Below are positions 5,412 through 31,094 of a stretch of 64,000 nt of DNA, in pieces. Each line of letters begins with the position of its first letter. Positions within the stretch are counted from its first letter, which is position 1. Made by a program: the position numbers and the translations under genes. The notes under the pieces were generated by a model. The model was not told the origin of the DNA and made no database searches. It saw only the letters and a program-made list of their open reading frames with translations. This DNA is from an uncultured Gammaproteobacteria bacterium (GTDB lineage: Bacteria; Patescibacteriota; Microgenomatia; UBA8517), in NCBI GenBank assembly GCA_964627195.1, contig CAZVJU010000003.1:14854-78853 (forward strand). The letters are read 5' to 3'.

Positions 5412-5434
5412 TATATCACACAAGGTGTGATATA
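5412..5434. repeat. REP-like palindrome tatatcacac-aag-gtgtgatata
   Basis: Perfect palindrome. It belongs to the TATCAC-N-GTGATA family seen at seven other sites. Confidence 0.6.
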
Positions 5435-5474
5435 GCTTCACACATCCGGTAAATAAGCCGTTTTTGTTGAAGTG

Positions 5475-5547
5475 TGACCCCACTGGGACTCGAACCCAGG
5501 TTTATAGGATGAGAACCTATTGTCCTAGACCACTAGACGATGGGGCC
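5475..5547 (-). tRNA. tRNA-Glu (anticodon CTC)
   Basis: The reverse complement folds as a 73-nt cloverleaf. The acceptor is GGCCCCA/TGGGGTC, the T-arm is CTGGG-TTCGAGT-CCCAG, and the anticodon loop is TTCTCAT. No CCA is encoded. Confidence 0.85.
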
Positions 5548-5667
5548 TTCATTCAAACTTTCTTTTCCAAAGAAAGTTTGGTAAAGCAAAGAAAACACCC
5601 AAAATACTAAGACTATTTTAGCTTAGTTGAAGCTGAAAGACAATTAAACCCTTCGGTGAACTCAGGT

Positions 5668-8172
5668 TTAACTCGCAGCTATGAAGGTAGAACGGGGAAA
5701 AACACGGTCTTTTTTCTTTTCTTCAACAACCGGCCACTTTTTCAGGGCAATCTTAAGTACTTCCTCCAAGCGGGAGACAAATAGAAATTTTATATCTTTC
5801 TGAACGCTTGCGGGTATATCTTCCATATCCTTCTTATTATCCTTGGGAAGAATTATTGTCTTTAACCCGGCTCGGTGACCTGCTATTACTTTTTCTTTTA
5901 CTCCGCCGATTTCAAGCGCACGACCGCGTAAAGTAATCTCGCCTGTCATGCCGACATTTCGTCTGACCGGAATTTTGGTTAAGGCCGATACCAGTGCTGT
6001 CGCCATCGCAATGCCTGCAGACGGACCGTCTTTTGGAACTGCCCCTTCAGGAACATGAATGTGGACATCAATATTGGCGACAAATTCTTCTTTTAGATTA
6101 AGTTCCTGCCAATGAGCTTTGGCCCAGGTAAAGGCCGCCTTGGCCGACTCCTTCATAACTTCCCCAAGTTGACCGGTTAAAGTCAGCTTCCCCTTGCCCG
6201 GCATCAGAGCTACTTCTATAAAAAGAATTTCGCCGCCCGAAGCCGTGACGGCAAGGCCGGTTGACATGCCAACTTCATCAACCTTTTCAGCAATTAGGGA
6301 ACTGAATTTCTGGGGCCCTAAAAATTTTCTTACGTCAGCATTTTTTATTATCATAGGAAACTTTTTCTTCTCTGCGACCAAGCGCGCGATTTTTCGACAA
6401 ACCGTTGCAAGATTTCGTTCCAAATCCCTTACTCCGGCCTCTCGGGTATATCGATTAATAATTTCATTCAAAGCATTTTTGGCCATTTTAATTCCCTTAT
6501 CTTCGAATCCATGAAGCCTAAGTTGTTTTGGCCACAAAAATTCTTCGGCGATTTTATATTTCTCATCCTGGGTATAGCCGGGGAAACGAATTACCTCCAT
6601 TCTGTCCCGAAGCGCGCTTGGAATTTTTTCCAAAACGTTACCGGTGCAAATAAACATCACTTGCGATAGATCAAAGGGAACTTCCAAATAATGATCCGAG
6701 AATTCTCTATTTTGTTCTGGGTCGAGAGCTTCAAGAAGTGCCGATGACGGATCTCCTCGAAAGTCTACTCCCAATTTATCGATCTCATCCAACATAAAAA
6801 TAGGGTTTCTGGAACCAGCATTTTTAATGCCTTGGATTATTCTTCCTGGGAGAGCACCAACATAGGTTCTCCTATGGCCTCGAATTTCCGCTTCATCCCG
6901 AATTCCGCCAAGAGACATCCTAACAAATTTCCTGCCGAGAGCTCTCGCAATTGACTTGCCGATAGAAGTTTTACCGACTCCGGGGGGTCCGATAAAACAA
7001 AGAATCGTAGGTTGGGAATCTTCTTCTTTATCTTTTTCAGTTTCTGATTGAGTTAAATTTTCACCTTGTTTAGATTTTTTTTGCGAGTTTTTTTTATGAC
7101 TCTTTTTAATTTGCATCACCGCAAGATATTCCAATATCCTCTCCTTGGCCTTATTGAGTCCAAAATGATCGTTCTCAAGAATTTCTGCAGCTTTTGAAAT
7201 GGAAACGTTATTAGGGGTAGCCACACTCCAAGGCATGTCGCAAAGCCAATCAAGATAGTTCCTGATGTAACCTCCCTCCGGATTGTGAGGTGAAAGCTGG
7301 TTAAGTCTTTTAAGTTCTTTTTCTGCTTTTTCCCGAACGTCTTTCGGCATACCAACTTCTTTGATTTTTTGTCTGTATTCTTTAAACTCTTCGGTTGATA
7401 AATCTCCTTCTTCACCTTCACCCAACTCTTCTTCGATAGTCCTTTTTTTCTCGCGAAGCATGGCTTTGCGCATTTGATCCTCAAAGCGTTTTTGAGTTTT
7501 TGAAGATATGGTATGTTCGAGCTCAAGCACGTTTACCTCCTGGGAAAGATTCTCCAAAACTTTTTGGAGCCGATCCTTTAAAGAGGTCATCTCCAATAGT
7601 TCCTGTTTTCCCTTCATTTTGGTTTCAAGAAGTGACGCAACTTGGTCCACGAGTTCATTCGGTTCTACCTTCCCGGAAACCAGCTTCATAACGGCCATTA
7701 TTTCGGCTTGCTTACCAAGGTTGATCGATTTTTTGAAAAGATCGGAAATTTTGTTTGCAAGAGCTTGAATTTCCTCGGCTGTTCCTTTCACTACTGTAGG
7801 AACTTCCTCAACTTTCGCAATTAAGTGGGGTTCTGTAGAAGTCATTTCGATTAACCTTATTCTGGCTTGGCCCCTAACTACTGCATGGATTTCACCTTCC
7901 GTAGACATCATTTGGGTTATAGTTGCTATAGTCCCAATTTTAAAAAGGTCTTCAAAATCAGGGTCAGGAATTCGAGCATCTTTCTGGGTAAAAATGCCTA
8001 CCACCCTATCTTCCTGAAAAGCAGTATTTATTGCTTCAACGCTTTTCTTCCTTCCGAAGGAGAGAACTGCGTCCGTGTGGGGAAAAACTACCGATCCGCG
8101 GATAGCGACAATCGGGATCTGCCTATAGATTATAGTTTTTTCAAGTTCAACTTTTGTTACTTCGTCTGCCAT
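5668..8172 (-). CDS. lon: ATP-dependent protease Lon
   Basis: AAA+ Walker A GPPGVGKTS is present, along with the S16 catalytic Ser context DGPSAGIAMATAL. A Lys/Glu-rich low-complexity insert lies before the AAA domain. Confidence 0.95.
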   Translation of the reverse strand: MADEVTKVELEKTIIYRQIPIVAIRGSVVFPHTDAVLSFGRKKSVEAINTAFQEDRVVGIFTQKDARIPDPDFEDLFKIGTIATITQMMSTEGEIHAVVRGQARIRLIEMTSTEPHLIAKVEEVPTVVKGTAEEIQALANKISDLFKKSINLGKQAEIMAVMKLVSGKVEPNELVDQVASLLETKMKGKQELLEMTSLKDRLQKVLENLSQEVNVLELEHTISSKTQKRFEDQMRKAMLREKKRTIEEELGEGEEGDLSTEEFKEYRQKIKEVGMPKDVREKAEKELKRLNQLSPHNPEGGYIRNYLDWLCDMPWSVATPNNVSISKAAEILENDHFGLNKAKERILEYLAVMQIKKSHKKNSQKKSKQGENLTQSETEKDKEEDSQPTILCFIGPPGVGKTSIGKSIARALGRKFVRMSLGGIRDEAEIRGHRRTYVGALPGRIIQGIKNAGSRNPIFMLDEIDKLGVDFRGDPSSALLEALDPEQNREFSDHYLEVPFDLSQVMFICTGNVLEKIPSALRDRMEVIRFPGYTQDEKYKIAEEFLWPKQLRLHGFEDKGIKMAKNALNEIINRYTREAGVRDLERNLATVCRKIARLVAEKKKFPMIIKNADVRKFLGPQKFSSLIAEKVDEVGMSTGLAVTASGGEILFIEVALMPGKGKLTLTGQLGEVMKESAKAAFTWAKAHWQELNLKEEFVANIDVHIHVPEGAVPKDGPSAGIAMATALVSALTKIPVRRNVGMTGEITLRGRALEIGGVKEKVIAGHRAGLKTIILPKDNKKDMEDIPASVQKDIKFLFVSRLEEVLKIALKKWPVVEEKKKDRVFPRSTFIAAS

Positions 8173-8230
8173 GAATTAAATATATTTTAGCAGTCTATCC
8201 TCTTGTTTGCTAAAAGTCAAGAGTCTTTCT

Positions 8231-8734
8231 TCACTTTACTAACTTGAACAAATGAAGTTTGTCGATAATATAGGCCACACATAACCCCAAAATAGCTCCT
8301 GCGAAAATGTCTGTATAAGAGTGAACATTCCCCAAAACTCTCCCTAAACCTACTAAGAATGCGCTTGCCAAAAAGAAAAAGCCAATCTTTTTATCATGCA
8401 ACCACACACTTACAGCCAGCGCGAATGCTGAGGCTGCATGGGATGACGGAAAAGCGGAATCGAAAGGTACCGTCAAGGTCATCGGAATACTCCCGTTAAC
8501 TTCAAAGGGTCGTGAAATCGGAAATAAATTTTTTATCATTTCGGCGATAACCCATGCGAGTAAGGTTGCGAAAAGCGCGTGGAAAGCTTCCTCCCTCTTC
8601 ACTCTCCCATCAAAGAGCCAAAGCCCCAAAAGTCCCGCAAACATGAACCAAATCAAAAAACTCGCTAAAAAAGTTACGGAAATTGACGTCTGACCGGAAA
8701 GAACTGCAGGGTTCATATTAGTCGTGAATAACAA
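8231..8734 (-). CDS. PAP2-family phosphatase (membrane)
   Basis: The PAP2 motifs KNLFPISRP, PSSHAAS and HSYTDIFAG are present in a multi-TM protein. Confidence 0.7.
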   Translation of the reverse strand: MLFTTNMNPAVLSGQTSISVTFLASFLIWFMFAGLLGLWLFDGRVKREEAFHALFATLLAWVIAEMIKNLFPISRPFEVNGSIPMTLTVPFDSAFPSSHAASAFALAVSVWLHDKKIGFFFLASAFLVGLGRVLGNVHSYTDIFAGAILGLCVAYIIDKLHLFKLVK

Positions 8735-9410
8735 TGCGTGTCCCCAGGTTATCGGCGCTTGAATAAACTATGTTCTTGCCTTCGGGAAGAACCGGCGAGG
8801 CCCAATAGTAAAGCTTTTCTGCAATAGGTGTGGGAAGATTAACACATCCATGGCTCCGCGGCGTTCCAAAATCGTTATGCCAGTAGGTTCCGTGTAACCC
8901 ATAACCCCTCCAATTAGGAACTTTACTGTTGCCGAAATACATCACATACGGGACATTCGGTAAATTATAATAATATCTGCCGCTTCCTCCTTCCATCTTT
9001 GTGGCTCTAAGTTTAATCCAAATTCTAAATTCACCTACAGGAGTCGGGGTCCCAGGGAGTCCGCTGGAAACACGTGTTTCCAGAAACAAATTACCACCAT
9101 CCCACGCTTGTAACTTTTGTTCCGACAAATCAACTTCAATGTAGCGATCGCCATTTGTTGTTCCGAGTACTCTGTCTGCATCCGGCGCAGATGCGATCAT
9201 GGGAGGAACCTGAAGTCTTTGCCCCTCAAAAATTGCCAGTTTCTGAGTAGGATCATATTCTCCGGCATAGTTTACGCTCTGGCAGGCACTTATGTCGTCG
9301 CTCTTAGTTTTTACTTTCTGAACAGTACTATTATCCCTGAAATTCAAAGTCAGGAAAAAAGAGAACATCAGGACAGAGCAAGATAAAATGATTAGAAAAT
9401 TTTTCTTCAT
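8718..9410 (-). CDS. L,D-transpeptidase (YkuD domain), secreted
   Basis: N-terminal signal sequence. The catalytic block is YGLHGTYWHNDFGTPRSHGCVNLP. Confidence 0.75.
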   Translation of the reverse strand: MKKNFLIILSCSVLMFSFFLTLNFRDNSTVQKVKTKSDDISACQSVNYAGEYDPTQKLAIFEGQRLQVPPMIASAPDADRVLGTTNGDRYIEVDLSEQKLQAWDGGNLFLETRVSSGLPGTPTPVGEFRIWIKLRATKMEGGSGRYYYNLPNVPYVMYFGNSKVPNWRGYGLHGTYWHNDFGTPRSHGCVNLPTPIAEKLYYWASPVLPEGKNIVYSSADNLGTRIVIHD

Positions 9411-9444
9411 TTAACTACCTACTACTAATATATCTAATATCTCT

Positions 9445-9846: not shown

Positions 9847-9851
9847 AATCT

Positions 9852-10592: not shown

Positions 10593-10598
10593 AATAAT

Positions 10599-11264: not shown

Positions 11265-11291
11265 AAGCGAATTATAACAAAATTTAGCTTT

Positions 11292-11960: not shown

Positions 11961-11990
11961 TATCTCTTAAGTGTAGCAAGTATTAATTTC

Positions 11991-12053
11991 TTTCACACCG
12001 GGTGTGTGATTCAAATTGATAATTATAAATAGGGATCACACACCCGGTGTGGC
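11991..12053. repeat. REPIN-like doublet: two 17-bp REP-like units in inverted orientation (cacaccgggtgtgtgat / atcacacacccggtgtg) separated by about 20 nt
   Basis: The two units are exact reverse complements. The doublet lies in a divergent intergenic region. Confidence 0.7.
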
Positions 12054-14653: not shown

Positions 14654-16381
14654 CTATCCGAAGGTAAAAGCATAAAGTTCGAGGTTGGAATCGAGGAATT
14701 CAAGTTTTAATACGTGTTGGCCGGGTTTATCGAGCTTCACTAATTTATAGAGCCTATCAATATCAACGCTAACTACCCCATCTTTTACGTCATCTCCCGC
14801 ATTACTCCCTGTAAGTAACTTATCATCCAAAGTTACCCGAACTTTTCCCTCCGTTTTCCCTTTTGGTCGCATCACCAAAAACACATCCTTTGACTCAAAT
14901 GCCAAAACTAGAGTGGAACCAGAAAACGGCATCGACCCTTCCTCCTCTATTTGCCAATCTCCTGACAGTGCAAAATGGTTGATGACTAAGTCTTCGGGTA
15001 ATTCATAAGTCTTTTTCTCGTCCCTAGCTAATTCATTCGGTGTTGCAAAGTAACCCATTCGGCCGTATCCAAGATAAAGCTCAGGTGTTCTTGTAGTGAT
15101 TTGGTACTTCGGATTATTAACTCCCTCTTTTATCTCAACTCCGGTTTCTGCTAAAAGCGCTTGAATCACCTCTTCGGTTTCATCATATTCGCCTTCGCCA
15201 AAATGAGTGTAGCGGATTTTGCCGTTCTTATCGACAATATACTTAGCTGGCCAGTAGTGATTGTCATAAACCCGCCATGTGGCATAATTATTATCTTGCA
15301 TCACAGGATATTTAATTTCAAAGTCCTCGATTGCTTTTTGAACATTCTCGGGAGATTTTTCAAATTCAAACTCGGGAGTGTGAACCCCGATTATTACCAA
15401 TCCTTTGTCGGCATACTTTTCGTACCAATCTCTTAAATAAGGCAAGGTTCGAATGCAATTAATACATGTGTAGGTCCAGAAATCTACCATCACAACTTTC
15501 CCTCGAAGCTCTTTCAAAGTCAGAGGTTTAGTATTGAACCAATCGCCGCCAGGAATTAGCTCTGGTGCATTAACCCCTGAATCATCAAGTAAATTAAACG
15601 TCGGCTTTCCCATATCTTCTTCACTCACCTCACCTCCATCTAGTCTATCAAGAGCGCGCCGAATTGTCTCGTTATCTTCGAAGCTAGTTAATCCTGTTCC
15701 ATAATTCGGAAATTTATCCAAGATAAAGGTTTGAAATTTTCTGTCAATGTTAAAAAATATCGCAAGTGCGGTCAATATCATCAAAACTCCGAAAGCTTTT
15801 TGAATCTTTACAGTATTACGAGTAAGCCAAGGAACTTTATTTAGTAAATTTCTGCCTCCATACACTATCGCAAGCATGGGAATTGCGGTTCCAAGCGAAT
15901 AAGAAAATGTAATTAATGCGGCTTGACCGGAAACGCTTCCCGTTATTGCAAGAGAAATAATCGAGGCTAAAATCGGACCAACACACGGCGTCCAGACTAA
16001 GCCAATACTCGCACCGATCAAAACCCCGCCGACAAAGCCTGAATCTTCTTTTAGTTTGGGACTGAATCTGGAGAAATAGGTAAAGAAACGCTCTAAAAGA
16101 GCCTGAAAATTCGGAAGTAAAAGTCCCAAGCCAAAAATGAGAATTATAATAATCGAAAAACTTCGCAAAGCGCCAGCCGGAATTCCCAAAGATTTAACTA
16201 TCAAACTCAAAAAAAGCGTAAAAAATGTGAAGCTTATGATAAACCCGGTTACCACCCCTAACGGCCTTTTCTTACTGCCCGTTAATGAGCTGGACAAAAT
16301 AACTGGCAAGATAGGCAAAATGCAGGGAGAAAGAATAGTTACCACCCCGGCAAGAAATGCAAATAGAATAAGCAAAATCAT
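14654..16381 (-). CDS. DipZ-like protein: CcdA/DsbD transmembrane domain fused to a thioredoxin-like domain
   Basis: N-terminal multi-TM region with CxxP-type Cys residues. The redoxin block FWTYTCINCIRTLPYL...VIGVHTPEFEFEK is present. Confidence 0.75.
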   Translation of the reverse strand: MILLILFAFLAGVVTILSPCILPILPVILSSSLTGSKKRPLGVVTGFIISFTFFTLFLSLIVKSLGIPAGALRSFSIIIILIFGLGLLLPNFQALLERFFTYFSRFSPKLKEDSGFVGGVLIGASIGLVWTPCVGPILASIISLAITGSVSGQAALITFSYSLGTAIPMLAIVYGGRNLLNKVPWLTRNTVKIQKAFGVLMILTALAIFFNIDRKFQTFILDKFPNYGTGLTSFEDNETIRRALDRLDGGEVSEEDMGKPTFNLLDDSGVNAPELIPGGDWFNTKPLTLKELRGKVVMVDFWTYTCINCIRTLPYLRDWYEKYADKGLVIIGVHTPEFEFEKSPENVQKAIEDFEIKYPVMQDNNYATWRVYDNHYWPAKYIVDKNGKIRYTHFGEGEYDETEEVIQALLAETGVEIKEGVNNPKYQITTRTPELYLGYGRMGYFATPNELARDEKKTYELPEDLVINHFALSGDWQIEEEGSMPFSGSTLVLAFESKDVFLVMRPKGKTEGKVRVTLDDKLLTGSNAGDDVKDGVVSVDIDRLYKLVKLDKPGQHVLKLEFLDSNLELYAFTFG

Positions 16382-16585
16382 AACTACTTAATAACTCTTA
16401 AATTTTTATATAGCTAAATACTAGCATGTTACTGGAGAAAAATTAATCTCAACTATGATTTGGGTCACGATTTTCTGAACTACAGGTCTTCTGTGATCAC
16501 CACCAAAGTCGCAGAGAAGCGTGAGTTTTTGGTATAATTCAACTTAATATAGTGGCCGACGTAGATTCGGCCATTATTTTCGCAT

Positions 16586-16659
16586 TGAGGGATCTGCTAA
16601 TGGTAGGCAAGCGGACTCTGAATCCGTTAATCTAGGTTCGAATCCTAGTCCCTCAGCCA
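16586..16659 (+). tRNA. tRNA-Gln (anticodon CTG), CCA encoded
   Basis: 74-nt cloverleaf. The acceptor is TGAGGGA/TCCCTCA, the T-arm is CTAGG-TTCGAAT-CCTAG, the anticodon loop is CTCTGAA, and it ends in a discriminator G followed by CCA. Confidence 0.85.
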
Positions 16660-16663
16660 AATC

Positions 16664-17194
16664 ATGAAAATTATAATTAAACTCAAATATTTATTCCTCT
16701 TATTCTTCTTTCTGTTTGCCCTATTGTCAAATTATTATTTAGGTTCAAGAAATATTCAAAACGCTGCAAATGACAATTTCAATGGAGGAATATGTTACGC
16801 ATGTCAATCATGTAAAGACGTATATGAAATATGTCAAAAGAGATTTGGTTTTGATATCTATAATCTTATTTACTCTCTTATTCCTATTTCTTTTGTAATT
16901 GCTCTATTTAATAACATATATTTAAAAAGCAACCTATATAGAACGATTAAACAAAGTATATTATTGGGAATGATATGGTTAATATCTATTGAAATAATAG
17001 TAAGGATATTCCAGATCCCGGTACTTTATACTCATTTCCTTGAGGGTAGACAAAGTTTACATTATCAATTCTTTACATTATTTCCCGAATTTATTGTGAT
17101 TTTTTCTATATTTCAATCAATTATTTCAGGTGTATTTGGTTATTTCGTAGGTAGCATTACAAAACATTTCATATTAAGAAAAGTAGTAAAATAG
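16664..17194 (+). CDS. Hypothetical AT-rich membrane protein immediately downstream of tRNA-Gln
   Basis: 176-aa multi-TM protein with very low GC. It starts 5 nt after the tRNA. Confidence 0.35.
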   Translation: MKIIIKLKYLFLLFFFLFALLSNYYLGSRNIQNAANDNFNGGICYACQSCKDVYEICQKRFGFDIYNLIYSLIPISFVIALFNNIYLKSNLYRTIKQSILLGMIWLISIEIIVRIFQIPVLYTHFLEGRQSLHYQFFTLFPEFIVIFSIFQSIISGVFGYFVGSITKHFILRKVVK

Positions 17195-17228
17195 GTTCTA
17201 ATAGCGTACAAAGTGCGCAGCCAGTAAG
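17195..17228 (+). repeat. About 34-nt 3'-end element, copy D (gttctaatagcgtacaaagtgcgcagccagtaag)
   Basis: Matches the consensus of copies at 20167, 21781 and 23020. It starts immediately after a stop codon. Confidence 0.6.
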
Positions 17229-17253
17229 AATTGGAGAGAGGTCGGGAGGTAGC

Positions 17254-17337
17254 GCTTTCCGCGCCCGCCTCCGCGGAAAGCGGTAATCACCCGGTAATCA
17301 CCCGGTAATCACCCGGTAATCACCCGTCAGGTGATAT
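17254..17337 (+). repeat. GC-rich hairpin (gctttccgcg...cgcggaaagc), then 4 tandem copies of the 11-mer cggtaatcacc, ending in a REP-like palindrome atcacccgtcaggtgatat
   Basis: Read directly from the sequence. The REP unit is the inverted partner of the units at 18061 and 18107. Confidence 0.7.
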
Positions 17338-17340
17338 ACA

Positions 17341-17369
17341 TTGACACAACTCGGAAATAGACATAGGAT
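17341..17369 (+). promoter_or_regulatory. Putative promoter for the transposase gene (TTGACA-N17-TAGGAT)
   Basis: A perfect -35 with a weak -10, ending 10 nt before the ATG. Confidence 0.3.
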
Positions 17370-17378
17370 ATTATTAAT

Positions 17379-18044
17379 ATGTCTGGAAAAAGAAATGTCA
17401 TATTTGCCAAAAACGAAATCTACCACCTTTTTAATCGTTCAAATGCTAACGAATCGATTTTCGTAAAGAAAAAGGAAATCACAAGATCTCTTAACTTGAT
17501 GTCATTTTACAGATTTAATCAAAGTTTGAGATTTTCTTTTTTTGACAGACTTCCTGAAGAACAAAAAGATAAGTATTTGGAAAAGACTTTAGGAAACGTA
17601 CCAAATGTTGACATACTTTCCTACTCCTTAATGCCTAACCACTTTCATTTACTCATAAAGCAAACAAATGAAAAAGGAATAAAAAATTATCTCTCTAATT
17701 TCCAGAACAGCTTTGCGAAATATTTTAATATAAAAAATAAAAGGTTTGGAACTCTTTTTCAGAGACCTTTTAAGGCTAAACATGTAGAATCTGACGAACA
17801 ACTTCTTCACATATCAAGGTACATCCATCTTAATCCTGTTACATCCTATATGATGGAGTTTGAGAATTTGAGAAGTAGTGACTTGACCTCTTTACAATTA
17901 TATTTAGATAAAAAGAAGTCTTGGGTTAATACTGATCTAATTATTAATTTAATAGGTTCGGTATCAAAATACGAAAAATTTGTGAAAGATCATGTTGACT
18001 ATCAAAGAAAATTAAGTAAAATCAAGCACTTGTTATTAGATTAG
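17379..18044 (+). CDS. IS200/IS605-family Y1 HUH transposase, REP-associated (RAYT-like)
   Basis: The HUH motif LMPNHFHLLI is present, along with the C-terminal catalytic-Tyr block LFQRPF...ISRYIHLNPV, which parallels LWQRSY...YI.NP of TnpA IS200. The gene is flanked by inverted REP-like palindromes. Confidence 0.8.
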   Translation: MSGKRNVIFAKNEIYHLFNRSNANESIFVKKKEITRSLNLMSFYRFNQSLRFSFFDRLPEEQKDKYLEKTLGNVPNVDILSYSLMPNHFHLLIKQTNEKGIKNYLSNFQNSFAKYFNIKNKRFGTLFQRPFKAKHVESDEQLLHISRYIHLNPVTSYMMEFENLRSSDLTSLQLYLDKKKSWVNTDLIINLIGSVSKYEKFVKDHVDYQRKLSKIKHLLLD

Positions 18045-18130
18045 TAAGGTGTGTGAACCAATATCACCTGACGGGTGATACGTAGATTAGTAAGGTGTGT
18101 GAACCAATATCACCTGACGGGTGATACGCC
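18039..18130 (+). repeat. 2 x 46-bp tandem direct repeat (gattagtaaggtgtgtgaaccaatatcacctgacgggtgatacg), each containing a REP-like palindrome
   Basis: The two copies differ only at their last 2 nt. The first copy overlaps the transposase stop codon. Confidence 0.8.
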
Positions 18131-18152
18131 TCAAGAGCTAATATATCAAAAT

Positions 18153-18173
18153 ATATCACTCCCGGCGTGGATT
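18153..18173. repeat. REP-like variant tatatcactcccggcgtggat, followed by a tRNA T-loop-like ttcgaacc
   Basis: Same TATCAC...GTG family, with an imperfect right arm. Confidence 0.45.
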
Positions 18174-18195
18174 CGAACCTAATAAGACTTAATTC

Positions 18196-18870
18196 CTAAA
18201 GTTTGTAATTCGAAACTATCTCGTAACTGGCGTAGGGCACGACTTCATCATCAAAAAGGCACATTTTTATTTCCGGCCAGCAATTATCTAAAGCTTTGAT
18301 TTCTTGAATCGAGTACCACTTCACTCCTTCCAGTAACTTCATTGATTCTTTTTCGGTAGGGGTTATTTCAACCTGAAACATGACCTGACCGTCATCAAAA
18401 AGGGATTCACCATCAAGGGTTTTAACGATTTTAGCGTGAAGAGATTTATATTCAAATCTGACTGAGGGGATTTCAATCCCAGTATTCTCTTTAAAGAGTC
18501 TCACTAAGGCAGCTTCCATCGGTTCACCAAACATAGGCCGGCCACTGGGGAAGTTATAGAAATTAATTTTGGCGGTAGGGTGACTTTTTAGTAAATAGTT
18601 GCCGTGACCATCGTGAACAATAAAGCCACAAAAAAAGGTTTTTATTCCCTGCTCACTCAGATCAGATAATTCATAGTTATAAATTTCCTTAATTCCGGTT
18701 GGGGTAATAGCATAGGTATTGTCTTCTTTTTCGATAAATTGATTCTCCAGCAACTGGTTCAGGTGGAAGACTATATTGTTTTCGAAGTTATATCCCCGGG
18801 TTAAAGCCGCATATTTCTGGTTATTTTGTTGGGCAAGCCTTTTAAGTAATACCTTTTGGGTACGGTGCAT
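18196..18870 (-). CDS. wHTH-Nudix-like protein (N-terminal winged-helix-like region plus degenerate Nudix box), paralog 1
   Basis: The block GRPMFGEPMEAALVRLFKENTGIE fits a degenerate Nudix box Gx5Ex7R..E..GI. Much of it aligns by eye with 24670..25344, which has the same 224-aa length. Confidence 0.5.
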   Translation of the reverse strand: MHRTQKVLLKRLAQQNNQKYAALTRGYNFENNIVFHLNQLLENQFIEKEDNTYAITPTGIKEIYNYELSDLSEQGIKTFFCGFIVHDGHGNYLLKSHPTAKINFYNFPSGRPMFGEPMEAALVRLFKENTGIEIPSVRFEYKSLHAKIVKTLDGESLFDDGQVMFQVEITPTEKESMKLLEGVKWYSIQEIKALDNCWPEIKMCLFDDEVVPYASYEIVSNYKL

Positions 18871-19136
18871 AATTTAGTGTAGTTTACTACTCTAGATACG
18901 TTCCTTGGTAGTTGATAAATTACCGCCAAGTATGGAAAACTTAATGGGACAATTAACCGAAGAGGAGCTAGTCAAACACTTATCGCCGGTTGAAAAATGA
19001 CTTTATCGGTCAAGTGATAGGCAAGAGCAGTTGAATATTCTCTGTAATTCAAGTTGGGTTAATACTATCGGCCTTATCATTGAAAAGACGGCCGGACTTG
19101 GCCACCCAACTGATATAATTTTAGGAGGATAAACTT

Positions 19137-19505
19137 ATGTTTAAACAAATGTTTGCTAACTGCATTTTAGTCAAAGATTTTGAAAAATCTTTAGATTTTT
19201 ATCAAAACACATTAGGTTTGGAGCTAAATACCAGAGAGGGTAACTTTGCCAATTTTAAAATTGATAATATCGAGTTGGCGATCATGCAGCAAGACCAAGC
19301 CACCGAAATGCTGCCTAAAGATTTCATGAATAGCGGTGGAAGTGTACTGCTTTGTTTTCAGGTAAGTGACGTGGATAAAACTTGTTCGGACTTGCAAGCC
19401 AAAGGTATAAAGTTTATTTCCGGTCCCAAAGTGACTTCCTGGGGGCAAACCGTAGCCTATTTCCTTGACCCGGACAATAATATTTGGGAAATCTCCAAAA
19501 AATGA
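19137..19505 (+). CDS. VOC/glyoxalase-bleomycin-resistance family protein, paralog 1
   Basis: 122-aa VOC fold pattern. It is preceded by an AGGAGG RBS and is paralogous to 25447..25824. Confidence 0.65.
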   Translation: MFKQMFANCILVKDFEKSLDFYQNTLGLELNTREGNFANFKIDNIELAIMQQDQATEMLPKDFMNSGGSVLLCFQVSDVDKTCSDLQAKGIKFISGPKVTSWGQTVAYFLDPDNNIWEISKK

Positions 19506-21459: not shown

Positions 21460-21780
21460 ATGAAAAAGTCTTTGTTAACTTCACTATTGTTTGCATTTAT
21501 ACTTCTCAATCTCAGTTGGTTTTATGCAAAAAGTGTTACTTGCAGTGGTGGTTCACTTTCAGTAATCAGTTTTGCTAATGGTTGCCAGCCAGGACAAATA
21601 GTATATTATGTCCGCGGTTTTCCTATTGAATTCTTTTGGAGTAACAACACCGGCTTTGTACTTTTTTGGTATTTAATTGACTATTTAATATTTTTTATTT
21701 TTGTTCAATTGTTATTAACAATTATTAGGTTATTTAAATTAAAGCTATCAGATAGTTCTAATGATAAGTTAAGAAAATAA
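21460..21780 (+). CDS. Small hypothetical membrane protein
   Basis: 106 aa with 2 TM segments. It is followed directly by 3'-element copy B. Confidence 0.35.
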   Translation: MKKSLLTSLLFAFILLNLSWFYAKSVTCSGGSLSVISFANGCQPGQIVYYVRGFPIEFFWSNNTGFVLFWYLIDYLIFFIFVQLLLTIIRLFKLKLSDSSNDKLRK

Positions 21781-21814
21781 GTTCGAACAGCGTCCACAGT
21801 TCGCAGCCAGCAAT
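21781..21814 (+). repeat. About 34-nt 3'-end element, copy B (gttcgaacagcgtccacagttcgcagccagcaat)
   Basis: Starts at the nucleotide after the TAA stop. It has an internal inverted repeat cgaac...gttcg. Confidence 0.65.
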
Positions 21815-21898: not shown

Positions 21899-22690
21899 GT
21901 GAGACGTTTTTTACTGATAGTTACATTTCTGATTTTTTACGTCTTGTTTCTGAGATTACCTGTCTTAAAAACAAAGGTGCAAGGAAACAATTTCTACTAT
22001 AGGGATTTATTGGGATTTATTTATACACGACATTCTAGTTGTGGATGGATAGGGCCATGTTCTCATTGGGATGTGCCATTATTAGGTATACACAGTTTCA
22101 CATTTAAAACTTTAAAGTATAGTGGGTTGGATTGTTTAGATGCTTACGCAAAGTCAAACACTGCCCTTTACTATTTAGGCGAAAAACAACATCAGGTCAA
22201 AAGCCCCGCAACTTTTGAGTTAATGAATAATATGTATGCTAAAGATTCAGCAAACGTTTATAAACTTTGCGAACTAGAAGTTTTAAACATCGCCGAGCCG
22301 GATCGGTTTATAACAGTAGGGCCTGTTTGCTCAAAAAGCACCACCAGTGTTTACTGCTTTCAAAAAGAAGTAGAAAATGCAGATATAAATTCTTTCGAAC
22401 ATGTGTGGAGAGGATATTACAAAGATAAAAACAAGATTTATTTTTTAGGTAAACCATTAGGTGAGATCGATCCTGATACTTTCGAGTTATTGTCATGGGG
22501 ATACCTTAAAGATAAAAATGCCATTTTCTTTTTCGACGAGAATGCAAAGGAGTTAACCGAATTAAAGAGCGCGGATAAAACCACTTTTAAAGTATTAACT
22601 GAAATGTATGCAGTTGATGCTTCACACGTTTTCAAAAGCGGGATTGTGTTATCACATACAAATCCTAAAATCTTTAAAGTACCTCAATGA
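21899..22690 (+). CDS. DKNYY-repeat family protein, N-terminal TM anchor
   Basis: Repeated YxxDxNxVY/F blocks: AKDSANVYKL, YKDKNKIYFLG, LKDKNAIFFFD and YAVDASHVFKSG. GTG start. Confidence 0.55.
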   Translation: MRRFLLIVTFLIFYVLFLRLPVLKTKVQGNNFYYRDLLGFIYTRHSSCGWIGPCSHWDVPLLGIHSFTFKTLKYSGLDCLDAYAKSNTALYYLGEKQHQVKSPATFELMNNMYAKDSANVYKLCELEVLNIAEPDRFITVGPVCSKSTTSVYCFQKEVENADINSFEHVWRGYYKDKNKIYFLGKPLGEIDPDTFELLSWGYLKDKNAIFFFDENAKELTELKSADKTTFKVLTEMYAVDASHVFKSGIVLSHTNPKIFKVPQ

Positions 22691-23019
22691 CACTAAACGG
22701 TTCCAGACCGGCCTGCTCAGCAAATAATATTAAGACAAAAACATCCGTACGAATTTGCTATCATTTGCTTATGGGTAGAGTACAGAATTTTTTGAGGCCA
22801 AGTATTAGAAGAATAATATTTGCGTTAATAATATGGCTTGTATTGTGGCTTGTGTCCTATTTTTTTACCGCCAAATGTTTCTTAGCTGACTGTATAAGCG
22901 ATGGTCAAATGACTTCCTGCTGTAGTTCTCTTGAAAATAAAATCGCTGAACTTTTCTACACTATCAAGTTATCTTTTCCAGTAATCGCATACTTATTGTC
23001 TTGTAAATTAACAAAATAG
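22687..23019 (+). CDS. Small hypothetical membrane protein
   Basis: 110 aa. It overlaps the upstream gene by 4 nt and is followed directly by 3'-element copy C. Confidence 0.35.
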   Translation: MTLNGSRPACSANNIKTKTSVRICYHLLMGRVQNFLRPSIRRIIFALIIWLVLWLVSYFFTAKCFLADCISDGQMTSCCSSLENKIAELFYTIKLSFPVIAYLLSCKLTK

Positions 23020-23052
23020 GTTCGAACTCTGTCCACAGTTCGCAGCTCAGAT
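23020..23052 (+). repeat. About 34-nt 3'-end element, copy C (gttcgaactctgtccacagttcgcagctcagat)
   Basis: Starts at the nucleotide after the TAG stop. It has an inverted repeat cgaact...agttcg. Confidence 0.65.
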
Positions 23053-24523: not shown

Positions 24524-24642
24524 ATAGAAGTCCACAGCTAAAGCCGTGGTCCTTCGAGCTTCATTCGCCTTAGGCGAATGAATTTTCAATGATTCAATTC
24601 ATCCACGTCCAAAGACGTGAACTTCTTGAATTAGCTTAAAAG
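24524..24642 (+). repeat. MITE-like multi-hairpin element, copy 1 (119 nt)
   Basis: Terminal inverted repeats agaagtccac / gtgaacttct. Internal hairpins are ccacagc..gccgtgg, cattcgcc-tta-ggcgaatg and cacgtc-caaa-gacgtg. Copies also at 27473 and 62196. Confidence 0.75.
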
Positions 24643-24669
24643 TATTAACTTTTGAAGTAGGTTAATAAC

Positions 24670-25344
24670 TCAATCTAGAATATAATCTGATACAAATTCA
24701 TATTGTAAGTAATTGGCTCTATTATTTTGAACTAATAAGATATCTAACTCTGGCCATTTATTAGTTAGGTCTCTGATTTTCTCAAGGTTCATCCATTGAA
24801 TCTGTCTTCCCAGTTCCATTTTCGATCTATGGCTAGGATTTACGATTACTTGATAAATTGCAAAAGCGTCATCAAATAAAACTTCACCGGTTGATGTTTT
24901 TATAGTCTTTAAATGTAAGCTTAAATACTTGAAATTATTTGACTCAACTTCTAGACCAGTGTTTTCATAGAAAATACGAATTAAAGCTTTTTCAGTGTTT
25001 TCCCCAAAATGAGGCTTTCCACTCGGTAAGTTATAGAAATTTGTTTTTCCTCCCGGATGCTCCTTTACCAAAAAGTCATCTCCTGATTTACACACGAAGC
25101 CGATAAAAAATGTTTTGAAACCAGTGTCAGTTAATGAACTTAAATCGTATTTAGCAATTTCTTTAATTCCCACGGAACTAATCTTGTAAATATTGCTTGT
25201 CTTTTCTATAAATCCTTTTTTCAGGAGTTGTTTTAAGTGGAAGACAATATTATCTTCAAAGCTATAACCCCCTGTTAAAGAAGAATACTTTTGGTTGTTA
25301 TTTATTAACAGCCTCTTAAGAAATATCTTTTGGATTTCATGCAT
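24670..25344 (-). CDS. wHTH-Nudix-like protein, paralog 2
   Basis: 224 aa, alignable by eye across most of its length with 18196..18870. Same divergent arrangement with a VOC gene. Confidence 0.5.
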   Translation of the reverse strand: MHEIQKIFLKRLLINNNQKYSSLTGGYSFEDNIVFHLKQLLKKGFIEKTSNIYKISSVGIKEIAKYDLSSLTDTGFKTFFIGFVCKSGDDFLVKEHPGGKTNFYNLPSGKPHFGENTEKALIRIFYENTGLEVESNNFKYLSLHLKTIKTSTGEVLFDDAFAIYQVIVNPSHRSKMELGRQIQWMNLEKIRDLTNKWPELDILLVQNNRANYLQYEFVSDYILD

Positions 25345-25446
25345 AAATAGTAAGCTTAATTATAAGGCAACTTGGTGTAGCCGACTACCCTAGATAAATT
25401 AGTGTCAAAACGGTATTCTAGCTATGTTTGGAAGGAGGTGAGACCC

Positions 25447-25824
25447 ATGTTTAATAAACTATTCGCTGTTTGCCTTTTGGTTAATGATTTTGAAAAATCT
25501 TTTAAGTTTTATAAGGAAACCTTAGGACTAAAAGTAAAATCTCAAGAGGGAAAATTTGCTAATTTTAAATTAGGGGAAACCGAACTTGCTGTTTTCCAGA
25601 AAGATGAAGCAATAGCGATGTTCCCCAAGGAACATATGGGGAGTGGAGGTGGTGTTTCAATTGGTTTTCAAGTAGATAATGTAGAAAGAACTTGTAAAGA
25701 GTTAAAATCAAAAGAGGTAGAAATTTTTGAAGGACCAAAAAAAACTCCCTGGGGTCAGGAAGTGGCATATTTCAAAGATCCTGATGCAAATATCTGGGAG
25801 ATTTCTGAGCCTTTTGAAGAGTAA
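25447..25824 (+). CDS. VOC/glyoxalase family protein, paralog 2
   Basis: Homologous to 19137..19505. The start at MFNKLFAV is preceded by a GGAGGTGA RBS. The ORF track gives a longer ORF from 25402. Confidence 0.65.
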   Translation: MFNKLFAVCLLVNDFEKSFKFYKETLGLKVKSQEGKFANFKLGETELAVFQKDEAIAMFPKEHMGSGGGVSIGFQVDNVERTCKELKSKEVEIFEGPKKTPWGQEVAYFKDPDANIWEISEPFEE

Positions 25825-25832
25825 AGGCAACT

Positions 25833-26785: not shown

Positions 26786-26883
26786 AAAAGCTAATTAGGG
26801 TATAAAAATTGGTTCCTAGTGTATCTTAACTATCTTCTCCAAAGTAGTTATAATAGATTCAGAATCGACTAAATTACCTAATT

Positions 26884-27450: not shown

Positions 27451-27472
27451 TTATAAGCAGGTTTGAAACATA

Positions 27473-27621
27473 ATAGAAGTCCACGGCTTTAAGCCGTGGT
27501 CCTTCGAGCTACATTCGCCACAGGCGTTTGAATTTTCAATGATTCAATTCATCCACGTATAAGCAAAGCTTGGCACCGCTTCGCGTTGTAAAGACGTGGA
27601 CTTCTTGAATTAGCTTAAAAG
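27473..27621 (+). repeat. MITE-like multi-hairpin element, copy 2 (149 nt, with a 31-nt internal insertion)
   Basis: Same termini and hairpins as copy 1. The first hairpin is perfect: ccacggc-tttaa-gccgtgg. There is an extra ataagcaaagcttggcaccgcttcgcgttgt inside the third hairpin. Confidence 0.75.
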
Positions 27622-27662
27622 GTTCTAGATTGGACTGACCAGTCAGTAAGAAGTAAAAATAT

Positions 27663-27697
27663 CCAGGTGTGTCTATCTGTATCACTCCTGATGTGAT
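27663..27697. repeat. Composite REP-like element: ccaggtgtgtctatct followed by tatcactcctgatgtgat
   Basis: Both halves recur at 30969-30984 and 31075-31094. There they are separated by a hairpin-rich 90-nt insert. Confidence 0.6.
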
Positions 27698-29193
27698 TTG
27701 ATATAGAGGTAAAAGGGAAGAGAATCGGAGTCCAACTTCTTTAAGTTGGGTAGATTAGCCTGGTCTGATAATAATATTCCATCATTCGGTAAAGTTTCCT
27801 TTTGTTCGTCTATTACACCGGGTAGTTTGGGAAAATAGATTGCTCTTGCGAATAGTTCGGGGTCTTTAATGTTTACGCCATCCAATCGTGCTACTCTGGT
27901 AGACAAAAAAGGCTGCAATTGTCTTTCCTTTACCTTTAGGTAAAGCTCTTTATATGGCTTATTGTAATCTTCAAGATGGTAAAAGATGTGATAAGTATCT
28001 TTGGGGTAGATAAACATATAATACCGCCAGAAATCAAAGTAATTAATCGTTATTAAGAAAAATAAAATGAAGCCAGTGTATTTAAATAAGCGATTTTTGT
28101 TATCTAATATCATTTTGATCCCTAGTGTAAAAAATATTGAGTAGAAAGGGACCATATAAAGTAAGCGATGTGCAAAAAAGGTTGAACCCACAAAACCAAA
28201 CAGGAGAGGGGAAATAAGAAAAGTTATCCCAAGTAATCTTAAATAATCAGAACCATTCCTGAATGTTTGATATATGCCGATTGCAAATATGGGCAGAGTG
28301 GATAAAAGGAACATCCCATGGCGCAGGGTTGATTGGACCAATAATTTATCGCCGGTAATAAATAAAAACGAGATGTCAAAGCTGGCTAAATAATAATAAA
28401 AGAAACTATATAGTGAGCTAATATTAAAACTTACACGATTTAGTACGGCGCCTCCGTAATAGTGTTCTAATAATGGAATTACGGCAAAAAACGGGAGCGC
28501 GGTTAAGGTAAATGTAAAAAGCGGTACTAAAAACTTCTTTCTAGTTAGAGTTTTTAAAGAAAGTTTTTGAGCCGGCCGGTTGAGATAAGAAATGTAGCCA
28601 ATGCTAATTAAAATCCAAATAGCTACCAACGGTCTTATCCCACCGTATGCATAAAAACCAGTACCCAAACTGAGAGCTGCAAAGATTAAATATTTATTAT
28701 CAAAACTTCGTCTGTATTTGAATAAACTGATTAGCCAAAGCAAAACAAAAGTAACCACAATCATATGTTCATATGGTGTATGAGTTACGATCATTACTTC
28801 AGGAATAATTATAAAAGAGATTAAGGTTATAAATGCGGATTTTTTGTCAAATAAAAGCCTGGCAAAATATAAAGTCAGAAGGGCAGAAATAACCGTAATT
28901 ACTACAGTTGCCAAACGCAATACGTAAACAGAAGGACCGAAGAGTTTAAAAAGCAAGGCAACCAAATACTGCATATATGGCGGATACCAAGTTACATTAT
29001 TTGATCCGAGAATAAATAGTGGTAAAAATCGTCCATGCGCATCGCGTAAGTTTTGAGCTAGTAAAATGCCATTATAGCCGTATGATGCCTCGTCTTCAGT
29101 AATACCGTTTGGAGTATCGGCAAGTCGGAAGGAGAAGAAAATAAATAAGAAAATTATTAAAATGCCTATAGAAAGGAAGGTTTTCGGTTTCAT
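27682..29193 (-). CDS. GT39/GT83-type (PMT/ArnT-like) integral-membrane glycosyltransferase
   Basis: 503-aa polytopic protein. The N-terminal DE-containing loop GITEDEASYGYNGILLAQNL is typical of PMT_2/ArnT-like enzymes. Confidence 0.65.
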   Translation of the reverse strand: MKPKTFLSIGILIIFLFIFFSFRLADTPNGITEDEASYGYNGILLAQNLRDAHGRFLPLFILGSNNVTWYPPYMQYLVALLFKLFGPSVYVLRLATVVITVISALLTLYFARLLFDKKSAFITLISFIIIPEVMIVTHTPYEHMIVVTFVLLWLISLFKYRRSFDNKYLIFAALSLGTGFYAYGGIRPLVAIWILISIGYISYLNRPAQKLSLKTLTRKKFLVPLFTFTLTALPFFAVIPLLEHYYGGAVLNRVSFNISSLYSFFYYYLASFDISFLFITGDKLLVQSTLRHGMFLLSTLPIFAIGIYQTFRNGSDYLRLLGITFLISPLLFGFVGSTFFAHRLLYMVPFYSIFFTLGIKMILDNKNRLFKYTGFILFFLITINYFDFWRYYMFIYPKDTYHIFYHLEDYNKPYKELYLKVKERQLQPFLSTRVARLDGVNIKDPELFARAIYFPKLPGVIDEQKETLPNDGILLSDQANLPNLKKLDSDSLPFYLYIKSHQE

Positions 29194-29439
29194 TTTCGAA
29201 ACAGTTATAGTTACAAGTATACATATTCTAATGCTTTCTGTTTAGATATAATTTACAACTCTCCATACCATTTTTGCTCTAATTCAATGGCGTATATCTC
29301 TTTATATTATCAACATGATGTTTATATTATGATAATAGAGATAAAGTAATAATAATGATGGTCAAAGGTACTAAAAGGTACCTTTGACAACATTTTCCAT
29401 TACGAAGAAAGTTGCGAATTATAGGGCTGGATTGATATA

Positions 29440-30753
29440 ATGCTCTCCATGTTACCAAAACAAAGAGAACGAGCTCCACAGATACCAGAATTTGTACACA
29501 AAGAGGTATTGTCGAACGGACTTCGAGTATTGGTTCACGAGATGCCGTGGGCGCAATCTGTTTCCGCAAGGTTCTTGGTAAAAGCGGGGCCCCGATATGA
29601 AGACGAAGTTACGACTGGCTCTGCCCATTACTTGGAACATATGTTCTTTGAAGGTAGCCAAAAGTATCCCTCACGCAGAGAGCTTGATAGAGCAGTTGAG
29701 AGCAGGGGCGGTGACCATAGTGCATACACTGACAAAGAGTATGTCATGTACCAAGCGAAACTTCCTACTGAAAGCGCAGATTTTGCTTCAGAATTTGTAA
29801 GGGAACTTGTCTTCAATCCAGTAATGGCCGAGGAGGCAGTTGAGCGAGAAAAAGGAGTAATTAGTGCTGAACTGCGAAGGTCAATCGATACGCCAGCTCA
29901 ACATAGATGGAACTTGTTGCGTCAACATGTGTGGAGTGGGCATCCTTTAGGACATAATACTCTGGGAACTTTTGATTCAATAGAGCGAATCAGCCGTCAA
30001 GATTTGCTAGGTTATCATACAAGGTTCTACCGACCCAACAATGCAATTTTAGTTGTGGTTGGCAATATCACCACACCGAGAGCGATTGATTTGGTGGCTC
30101 GGGATTTTGGTAGCCTTACGGCATCAGGTGACCAACTTCCTTCAATTCCTGCACCGATACAATCTGTTGACTCCAGAGTGCTGGTTGAAGAAAGAGATAT
30201 AAAGCAAGCACATCTTCTATTGGCTTTTGCAACTGATGGTCACGGTGAAAGCAGTCCCGTACTACCACAGATTCAAGTACTTTCAAGAATGCTACGCAAT
30301 AACATTTTCCATAAATTCGTATACGATTTAGGGTTCTCCTATTCGGCGGGATGTTATCCGTGGCTAGTCAGTGATAGTGGAAATATGGTTATCACCGTCG
30401 AAGTAGCACCAGAAAATACAGACCAGGCGGTAACAAGAATGGTTCAGGAAGTGAACAGCTTGAAAGTTGATGAGGAATCCGTACAAGAAGCAAAAGCAGG
30501 GGTTGTCAGCGATACTATTTTGAATCTTGCTGACACAGATGTATATGCTCATTTCATTGGAAAACAGGAGTTGTATACAGGAGCAGTAAAATCACCAGAA
30601 CAAGTGAGGGCAGATATTCAATCAGTTTCAGTCGAAGACATTCAGAAAACGAAAAGAACTCTACTGACTCGAAATAATGCAGCCATGGTTGTTCTTGGCC
30701 CAGTGCCACAGGGTAAAGCAAAAGAACTAGATGACATGCTAGTTTTTGCATAA
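29440..30753 (+). CDS. M16-family zinc peptidase (pitrilysin/insulinase-like)
   Basis: The inverted zincin motif HYLEHMFFEG (HxxEH) is present. Confidence 0.85.
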   Translation: MLSMLPKQRERAPQIPEFVHKEVLSNGLRVLVHEMPWAQSVSARFLVKAGPRYEDEVTTGSAHYLEHMFFEGSQKYPSRRELDRAVESRGGDHSAYTDKEYVMYQAKLPTESADFASEFVRELVFNPVMAEEAVEREKGVISAELRRSIDTPAQHRWNLLRQHVWSGHPLGHNTLGTFDSIERISRQDLLGYHTRFYRPNNAILVVVGNITTPRAIDLVARDFGSLTASGDQLPSIPAPIQSVDSRVLVEERDIKQAHLLLAFATDGHGESSPVLPQIQVLSRMLRNNIFHKFVYDLGFSYSAGCYPWLVSDSGNMVITVEVAPENTDQAVTRMVQEVNSLKVDEESVQEAKAGVVSDTILNLADTDVYAHFIGKQELYTGAVKSPEQVRADIQSVSVEDIQKTKRTLLTRNNAAMVVLGPVPQGKAKELDDMLVFA

Positions 30754-30968
30754 CACTACAATAAGCTCGACTTCTTCAAGTACGAGTTTCAAAAAATATC
30801 TCGCAGACTTCTGAGCTGTTATATTGATTTTGGATGGCAGATTTTCAGGGTGGGTAGGGGCCACCTTGCAAAGGCTAATGCGGGTTGGGGTTGAATCGGA
30901 TATGAAAGTGTCTCAAGTTGTTCTTCGAAGTAGGTTGTGACATACTCAACCAATGCCAGCAACAAAGT

Positions 30969-31094
30969 CCAGATGTGTCTATCTACAGATGTCACATTTT
31001 GAAATCGGACTAAAATGTGACATATGCTATAGAAATCACCACTAATATAGTCCTACTTCATAATGTGATTTCTATATATCACTCCTGGTGTGAT
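30969..31094. repeat. Interrupted composite REP-like element: ccagatgtgtctatct, two nested inverted repeats, then tatatcactcctggtgtgat
   Basis: The inverted repeats are tgtcacatttt/aaaatgtgaca and atagaaatcac/gtgatttctat. Compare the compact version at 27663-27697. Confidence 0.55.

Follow-up and report, generated by a model that had tools for sequence, protein, structure and literature searches.

We analyzed a 64-kb window of contig CAZVJU010000003.1 (positions 14,854 to 78,853), from an uncultured bacterium of the Patescibacteriota lineage Microgenomatia. In this window a short palindrome beginning TATCAC and ending GTGATA recurs between genes, and one gene (17379-18044) encodes a relative of the tyrosine transposases associated with repetitive extragenic palindromic (REP) elements, known as RAYTs. 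The recurring sites probably form a REP-like family of about 40 nt that is tied to a Patescibacteria-specific clade of class-2 (Y---NP) RAYT-type HuH transposases, and the family appears to be a version of the REP/RAYT system that is particular to this lineage and had not been described before. The RAYT gene sits in a REPtron-like bracket of family elements, which is kept across the clade while the hairpin changes.

The palindromes had been pointed out in a sequence-only reading of the window, which has a G+C content of 38% and is 11% non-coding. The consensus proposed there (TATCACNCC-N1-5-GGNGTGATA) had no exact match in the window, and TATCAC-N3-12-GTGATA matched three times. The exact dyad ATCAC-N7-GTGAT was found six times (5415, 17319, 18063, 18109, 27681, and 31078), a density of about 6 per 64 kb, against an expected count of about 0.07 by a composition estimate. 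With up to one mismatch it was found seven times, versus 1.28 in dinucleotide shuffles. Once the copies were oriented, an asymmetric 5' box, TGTGT(G/C), could be seen with its 3' end 7 nt upstream of TATCAC; the proposed consensus had missed this conserved box. The composite motif TGTG-N8-TATCAC-N7-GTGAT occurred in five exact copies. When up to two mismatches were allowed, 0.08 copies were expected and the observed count was reached in 0 of 100 shuffles, which bears out the claim that the palindrome family exceeds what base composition would give. The family element is therefore defined as a unit of about 40 nt, consisting of the box (C)CGG-A/G-TGTGT-C/G, then 7-8 nt, and then a 17-19-nt hairpin, TATCAC-N7-GTGATA.

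All six copies fall within the non-coding 11% of the window, and the claim that the sites are all intergenic is essentially right, with the copy at 27660-27703 overlapping the last codons and the stop of ORF (open reading frame) 27682-29193. The shorter GGTGTG/CACACC was intergenic in 12 of its 23 window occurrences. The sites all lie in the first half of the window because 79% of the intergenic DNA is within 1-33566. Confirmed copies were located between unidirectional genes (5409, 17313, and 31056) or convergent genes (18042-18131 and 27660). The sequence-only reading had often placed them in divergent promoter regions, which holds only for the marginal sites at 11994 and 12051. As it had stated, no T-tract follows the copies; none was called terminator-like, and the G+C-rich stem with a T-tract that marks an intrinsic terminator was absent from the window elements. 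An Rfam scan of the window returned two tRNAs only, with chance-level matches near the RAYT gene.

The gene at 17379-18044 (plus strand) encodes 221 aa and was assigned to the RAYT-like Y1 (HuH) tyrosine transposases from its Pfam Y1_Tnp match, its fold, and its motifs. The Y1_Tnp score was 33.9 bits (cut-off 23), there was no other Pfam match, and Pfam found no C-terminal helix-turn-helix (HTH) of the TIRYT type (Bac_DnaA_C, HTH_23, HTH_28). The sole NCBIfam match was REP_Tyr_transpos (NF047646; 45.8 bits, E 5e-12), and the IS200 models of NCBIfam did not match the protein. H88-F-H90 (HuH) and Y148-IHL-N152-P153 were invariant in alignments of 16 and of 64 homologous sequences. Y---NP is the class-2 (TnpA-REP-like) signature, whereas IS200 transposases have Y---Q (PMC6006769). 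A PDB sequence search with the protein gave weak ISDra2 matches only and did not reach entry 4ER8, in which the E. coli RAYT is in complex with REP, so a fold search was needed. The AlphaFold2 (AF2) model of the protein had a pLDDT of 91.5, and its top Foldseek match in the PDB was 4er8_A (E 3.1e-6, TMt 0.70), with ISDra2 and IS608 TnpA ranking behind. On its class-2 motif and predicted structure, the ORF is classed as a RAYT-type Y1 HuH enzyme. The gene is present in one copy in the window and in the same context in four assemblies. A homolog search found 3,398 homologs; the best 120 of them were full-length (about 204-239 aa) save two fragments of about 160 aa, and within these 120 every homolog with a named source came from Patescibacteria or Microgenomates.

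We then scanned the window without filters using a covariance model, R2, built from 13 copies that all came from other genomes. R2 found five window copies, each with E ≤8.5e-5. Three of them flank the RAYT gene, where the sequence-only reading had counted two: a single copy on the left side and two in tandem on the right. The left element (17313-17356, minus strand; 28.7 bits, E 5e-5) contains the hairpin ATCACCCGTCAGGTGAT (17319-17335) and the box. Right copy 1 (18042-18085, plus strand; 30.1 bits, E 2.4e-5) begins at the RAYT stop codon and carries the box GGTGTGTG and the hairpin ATCACCTGACGGGTGAT. Right copy 2 (18088-18131, plus strand; 27.7 bits) is a tandem duplicate, and together the right copies constitute the 46-bp tandem D4 (18037-18082 and 18083-18128). 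The hairpin type at these flanks is CACCTGACGGGTG, represented in right copy 1 by the sequence given above. The two sides form 33-nt inverted repeats (85%), 17319-17351 being paired with 18047-18079 and with 18093-18125, so that the layout reads hairpin, box, gene, box, hairpin.

This bracket recurred in 9 of 9 Patescibacteria genomes examined, namely the window and eight further loci (L005, L056, L136, L137, L139, L175, L176, and L177; in L139 on the left side only). The RAYT homologs at these eight loci share 45-62% identity, L139 being left out of the measurement, and each genome has a different gene neighbourhood around the bracket. The hairpin sequence varies by genome, with CACCCGACGGGTG, CACACCTGGTGTG, CACCCTAAGGGTG, CCACACATCCAAGGTGTG, and TTCCACATCGGATATGGAA as examples, and the box stays recognisable. 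In an alignment of 39 hits, 96.6% of the stem cells were paired, and stem pair 7 was A-T in 20 copies and C-G in 16. The hairpin thus changes in a compensatory way. Locus L139 (20975-21296), whose contig was reached through an M16 peptidase homolog of 74% identity, holds a 225-aa RAYT paralog of another subtype, which has the conserved box CCGGTGTGTCAAGG, an entirely different hairpin (the last of the five examples), and a canonical TTGACA-17-TATCAT promoter before the gene.

The left side of the bracket coincides with a promoter-like site of the RAYT gene. This site, TTGACA-17-TAGGAT (17341-17369, plus strand; 10/12 positions), was the best sigma-70-like match in 16300-19200, and its -35 hexamer TTGACA (17341-17346) is the reverse complement of the left element's box. 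In the homolog loci the reverse complement of the left-side box is TTGACA or TTTACA. The arrangement T-T-G/T-A-C-A, 17-nt spacing, and -10-like hexamer before the RAYT start was found in the window and in L005, L056, L136, L137, and L139, with the spacing in these five loci read by eye, and TTGACAC also lies upstream of the RAYT gene in L175-L177. A promoter reading of the whole family was tried and rejected, since the copies have mixed orientations to genes and it holds only for the RAYT's left box.

To survey other genomes, one per species, we scanned with the pattern TGTGT-N7-TATCAC-N7-GTGAT. Among the matches listed, nearly all genomes had 1-2, which we took mostly for chance; the 11 single matches in a scan of viral contigs were likewise read as chance. 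Among the matches listed, Candidatus Gottesmanbacteria GW2011_GWA2_43_14 had ten near-identical copies on two contigs. A second, mixed covariance model, R1, added two more, giving at least 12 copies in the 48 kb sampled. The repeat unit there is 40-42 nt long (ATCCCGGATGTGTCTAGCTATATCACACCTGGTGTGATAYGG), with sharp edges and unrelated flanks, and is located at gene boundaries. Three copies in two sites bracket the RAYT homolog (L056, 2418-3092), the one RAYT gene in the 48 kb, and by our reading about 4 of 11 copies face a gene start. A dispersed, mostly near-identical population of this kind is the defining pattern of REP/RAYT systems. Additional solo relatives were found in metagenome contigs resembling the candidate phyla radiation (CPR), namely L144, L157, L159, L160, and L153; in L157 three copies point at small downstream ORFs. 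An element of CPR type was also present in metagenome-assembled genomes labelled 'uncultured Gammaproteobacteria' (L022 and L028 of CAZQSX01, L135 of CAYWEP01), whose contigs have 36-41% G+C; the automated taxonomic labels of these genomes look doubtful.

The sequence-only reading had treated nine individual sites, which it counted as eight, as one palindrome family. Five of the nine are solid copies, one is probable, two are marginal, and one is rejected. Besides the three copies at the RAYT gene, the solid ones include two solo elements. The element at 5409-5452 (minus strand; CCGGATGTGTGAAGCTATATCACACCTTGTGTGATATA) was the best R2 match of the window (52.6 bits, E 1.7e-10). The ATPase gene 4140-5321 lies downstream of this element, and tRNA-Glu lies upstream. 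The element forms a 10-bp hairpin when folded (z -4.3), and its 18-mer TGTGTGAAGCTATATCAC is identical in the metagenome loci L144 and L160. The element at 27660-27703 (plus strand; 34.3 bits, E 2.6e-6) lies between convergent genes and has a degenerate hairpin, TATCACTCCTGATGTGAT, which is absent from the minimum-free-energy fold. The probable copy, a weak sixth listed as 31075, is a diverged solo element at 31056-31100 (plus strand; TATATCACTCCTGGTGTGAT) whose box is shifted by 1 nt. It scored 21.7 bits (E 0.0018) with R1 and 13.2 bits (E 0.18) with R2, shares the TCACTCC subtype of 27681, and resembles the left RAYT hairpin of L175.

The remaining sites matched the family in part or not at all. 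Sites 11991 and 12032 match only through a 13-nt hairpin core, CACACC-N-GGTGTG (R1/R2 E 0.36-0.47). They lie in an inverted pair of ATCACACACCCGGTGTG at 11994-12051, between divergent genes, with 29-nt arms that are 86% complementary and have no spacer, and this pair is possibly a diverged relative. It is also the sole inverted doublet; the confirmed copies are singlets or direct tandems, and the suggested arrangement as REPINs did not hold for them. Site 18153 was not supported as a family copy (R2 E 4.7). Next to it, a T-loop-like sequence GGTTCGAATCC lies on the minus strand within 18130-18215. A reading of 18153-18180 as a tRNA fragment was rejected, as there was no proper T-arm pairing and no Rfam tRNA match at E ≤1. 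A box-only copy, CCAGATGTGTCTATCTA, was found at 30966-30990 (plus strand; R2 16.0 bits, E 0.04), followed by a different hairpin with a 12-bp stem at 30989-31023. The 396-bp intergenic region before the GT2 gene contains nested palindromes at 30989-31023 and 31029-31075, and the latter (ATAGAAATCAC...GTGATTTCTAT) encloses the start of the 31056 element.

The ends of the RAYT bracket show signs of instability. Four tandem 11-bp units, CGGTAATCACC, occupy 17281-17324 (plus strand), each a partial duplication of the distal hairpin arm. A comparison of four conspecific assemblies, each at least 99.7% identical to the window, gave two true indels only, one 11-bp unit and one 46-bp right-end unit: the array has one unit fewer in assemblies L001 and L002, and the copy at 18088-18131 is missing from L001, which is otherwise 99.7-100% identical. 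Partial distal-arm duplications were also seen at elements in L153 and L175, and whole-element tandem duplications in L137 and L177. These duplication loci are in unrelated CPR genomes (L153 12100-13066, L175 2870-3000, L137 9860-9990, and L177 2900-3000). Assembly collapse is conceivable, but the recurrence across genomes argues for the flank indels being a real property of the element ends. In L153, element copies in the same orientation lie on both sides of a 159-aa gene that is not a RAYT. At 17252-17282, directly adjoining the 11-bp array on its distal side, is a G+C-rich hairpin (GCGCTTTCCGCG...CGCGGAAAGCG) with an 11-12-bp stem, which is conserved in all four strain assemblies and is conspicuous at 38% G+C.

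If it acts like E. coli TnpA-REP (4ER8) and IS608 TnpA, the enzyme would bind the hairpin on single-stranded DNA, and nearby unpaired bases (the box, or the recurrent CGGA/ACGG edges) would place cleavage and rejoining. These reactions would spread the 40-nt unit and would yield the tandem and partial-arm duplications at the enzyme's own flanks. The RAYT gene could, in addition, be autoregulated by enzyme bound at the left element.

The proposal of a REP population maintained by the RAYT found support at the level of the family and not for this RAYT in particular. The bracket and the Gottesmanbacteria population support the REP/RAYT analogy for the family, but the window solos carry other hairpin types: ACACC..GTGT at 5409, and TCACTCC..GTG at 27660 and 31056. 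The TCACTCC type is similar to the hairpin at the RAYT flank of another lineage, L175. Multiple RAYTs may coexist in a genome, each having a separate REP family (PMC6006769). The solos are older or of other hairpin subtypes, two with stem pairing lost, and are best interpreted as relics, or else as the repeats that belong to a different RAYT lineage, and not as a population that this RAYT maintains at present. The M16 peptidase orthologs (61-74% identity) through which orthologous regions of 27681 and 31078 were sought are not syntenic.

Several observations weigh against a REP-like family served by RAYT enzymes. The hairpin type that flanks the window's RAYT has no solo copy in the window. 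The dyads at 27681 and 31078 do not fold as hairpins, and what is conserved there is the dyad sequence, not the structure. No solo copies were found in the RAYT loci L005, L136, and L137 (about 20 kb) or L001 (11 kb). The NCBIfam score of the protein for the RAYT equivalog REP_Tyr_transpos, 45.8, falls below the cut-off of 80. A canonical REP has GT[AG]G (or CGTC) 0-2 nt 5' of a G+C-footed hairpin (PMC6006769, PMC3733652); in this family no GT[AG]G lies at that distance from the hairpin, the foot is the A/T-rich TATCAC, and the TGTGT(C/G) box lies 7-8 nt away. Finally, compensatory changes in a palindrome are equally expected of a double-stranded DNA operator.

An operator of this kind is one of three other explanations that we considered. 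The elements might be regulatory modules of double-stranded DNA, in which ATCAC-N7-GTGAT is the operator of a dimeric protein beside a -35-like hexamer (TTGACA/TTCACA/TAGACA), and the link to the RAYT would then be the gene's own promoter and operator. The best promoter-like site does take its -35 from the left box, every homolog locus has a TTGACA/TTTACA box ahead of the gene, and the three copies in L157 are directed at small downstream ORFs. Moreover, 27681 and 31078 keep the dyad ends and not the stem, and conservation of box and spacer across class-level taxa is unusual for REPs. However, in the window the right bracket and the elements at 5409 and 27660 face 3' ends of convergent genes or the RAYT antisense strand, the share of Gottesmanbacteria copies facing a gene start is about 4 of 11, and no promoter-like site was called at the solo copies. 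The Gottesmanbacteria copies are also identical over 40 nt, asymmetric parts included, with sharp boundaries, which is a signature of copying. We therefore give the operator explanation a slim chance. An RNA-level role, with the hairpins acting as 3'-end stabilisers or terminators that arose independently at gene ends and resemble one another by coincidence or composition, would suit the position of most copies just downstream of coding regions. Such a role is highly improbable: there is no T-tract, none of the copies is terminator-like, the stems are weak (-6 to -7 kcal/mol), and the conserved unpaired box at fixed spacing, together with a chance expectation of 0.08, excludes independent origin.

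It is also unlikely, if less far-fetched, that the gene and its 33-nt terminal inverted repeats (TIRs) make up an autonomous or recently autonomous TIRYT/IS200-like transposon that moves as one piece, whose solo ends or derivatives resembling miniature inverted-repeat transposable elements would be the solo copies, in place of REPs mobilised on their own. Each genome examined has the bracketed unit in a gene neighbourhood of its own, and the unit's ends are duplicated in the window, L137, and L177. TIR-flanked RAYT genes with moderately abundant, dispersed TIR families have been described (PMC3733652) and correspond to subclass 2.1 (PMC6006769). Against a transposon, there is one gene copy in 64 kb with the same context in 4 assemblies, and the 48 kb of Gottesmanbacteria hold one gene versus at least 12 elements. 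Pfam finds no C-terminal HTH of TIRYT type, and the TIR consensus GGGG[AT][CG]A[CG] is absent. IS200/IS605 ends, for their part, are not inverted repeats, and their enzymes have Y---Q rather than Y---NP. A REP-like family tied to the RAYT clade thus remains the explanation that we favour as probable.

A broader form of this explanation is more speculative, and we put it forward tentatively as a possibility that we rather doubt. Patescibacteria (Microgenomates group) would have a large clade of their own of domesticated RAYT-like enzymes, with a box and spacer conserved at class level and a box that doubles as a -35. The elements would serve phylum-wide as portable promoter/hairpin modules at the gene boundaries of extremely reduced genomes, the enzyme would be autoregulated via its bracket, and the system would be functional and beneficial to the host rather than a set of selfish relics.

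Other repeats were observed in the window. A second family of about 120-150 nt, with several strong hairpins, is present at 24525-24642 and 27475-27621 and partially at 62200-62260, and has no Rfam match. The copy at 27470-27625 folds with -50.8 kcal/mol (z -4.8). Both full copies lie between convergent genes, and a gap of 40 nt separates one of them from the 27660 solo element. A third repeat, AAAATAGGTTCGAAC..GTCCACAGTTCGCAGC, was found at 17179-17221, 21765-21807, and 23004-23046, where it straddles the stop codons of small ORFs for predicted membrane proteins (16664-17194, 21460-21780, and 22687-23019). In addition, a divergent gene pair, encoding a winged-helix and NUDIX protein and a glyoxalase-like protein, occurs in paralogous copies about 6.5 kb apart. 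The first pair (18196-18870, minus strand; 19137-19505, plus strand) abuts the RAYT bracket, and the second is at 24670-25344 (minus strand) and 25402-25824 (plus strand).

Characterisation of REP/RAYT systems has centred on Proteobacteria, some systems being from Bacteroidetes and Cyanobacteria, and our literature search found no description of one in the candidate phyla radiation. The present observations add a large, uniform enzyme clade from Patescibacteria/Microgenomates with a conserved bracket and a non-GTAG tag. Such a bracket would broaden the spectrum of tag and hairpin layouts that HuH-Y1 enzymes are known to recognise. Repeats of this kind are kept even by genomes of about 1 Mb. 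The defined 40-nt substrate and the compact 221-aa enzyme are open to biochemistry, and in CPR metagenome-assembled genomes the element may serve to mark intergenic hot spots and indels at the strain level.

Among known systems, the family shares many features with the REP/RAYT systems of Proteobacteria, such as E. coli yafM with its Y/Z REPs, the REPINs of Pseudomonas, and the class 2 TnpA-Y1 of Quentin et al. 2018. A HuH-Y1 gene with Y---NP and a RAYT-like fold is common to both; it is low-copy in those systems and occurs once in the window. In both, inverted short hairpin elements bracket the gene as in REPtrons, each with an adjacent conserved unpaired motif. Dispersal at gene ends, between genes that run in one direction or converge, is reported for REPs in PMC3733652; for this family it was seen in Gottesmanbacteria as a population at gene boundaries and in the window as two or three solo copies. 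Several hairpin subtypes per genome, and a hairpin that co-varies with the enzyme lineage, are further shared features. Unlike REPs, which are species-specific, this family has a box and spacer conserved across class-level taxa. It also differs in that the -35 of the gene's promoter-like site is supplied by the proximal box, that the elements are mostly singlets at low density, that the host is a reduced CPR genome, and that the NCBIfam RAYT score is below the cut-off.

The closest analogue is subclass 2.6 of the Bacteroidetes TnpA-Y1 (RAYT group 5 of Bertels et al.), whose genes are flanked by atypical, non-GTAG structures that are copied elsewhere in the genome (PMC6006769). Here the comparison is by description only; the phylum is different, and the window's element sequence is not reported in PMC6006769. 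TIRYT elements (subclass 2.1) share a class-2 Y1 gene flanked by TIRs and, in some species, moderately abundant solo TIR families (PMC3733652). In contrast to TIRYT, the window protein has no C-terminal HTH or DnaA-like domain by Pfam, GGGG[AT][CG]A[CG] is lacking, and the repeat holds a hairpin. The TnpA enzymes of IS200/IS605 (IS608 and ISDra2) have the HuH-Y1 fold in common with the window protein, and their hairpin with a nearby guide or cleavage motif may have a counterpart here, a functional parallel suggested by analogy. In both cases the left-end structure overlaps the transposase promoter region. IS200/IS605 elements have non-inverted ends, Y---Q, dimers of about 130-150 aa, and multiple identical copies, whereas the system described here combines a 221-aa Y---NP protein with an inverted bracket and a single gene copy in the window.

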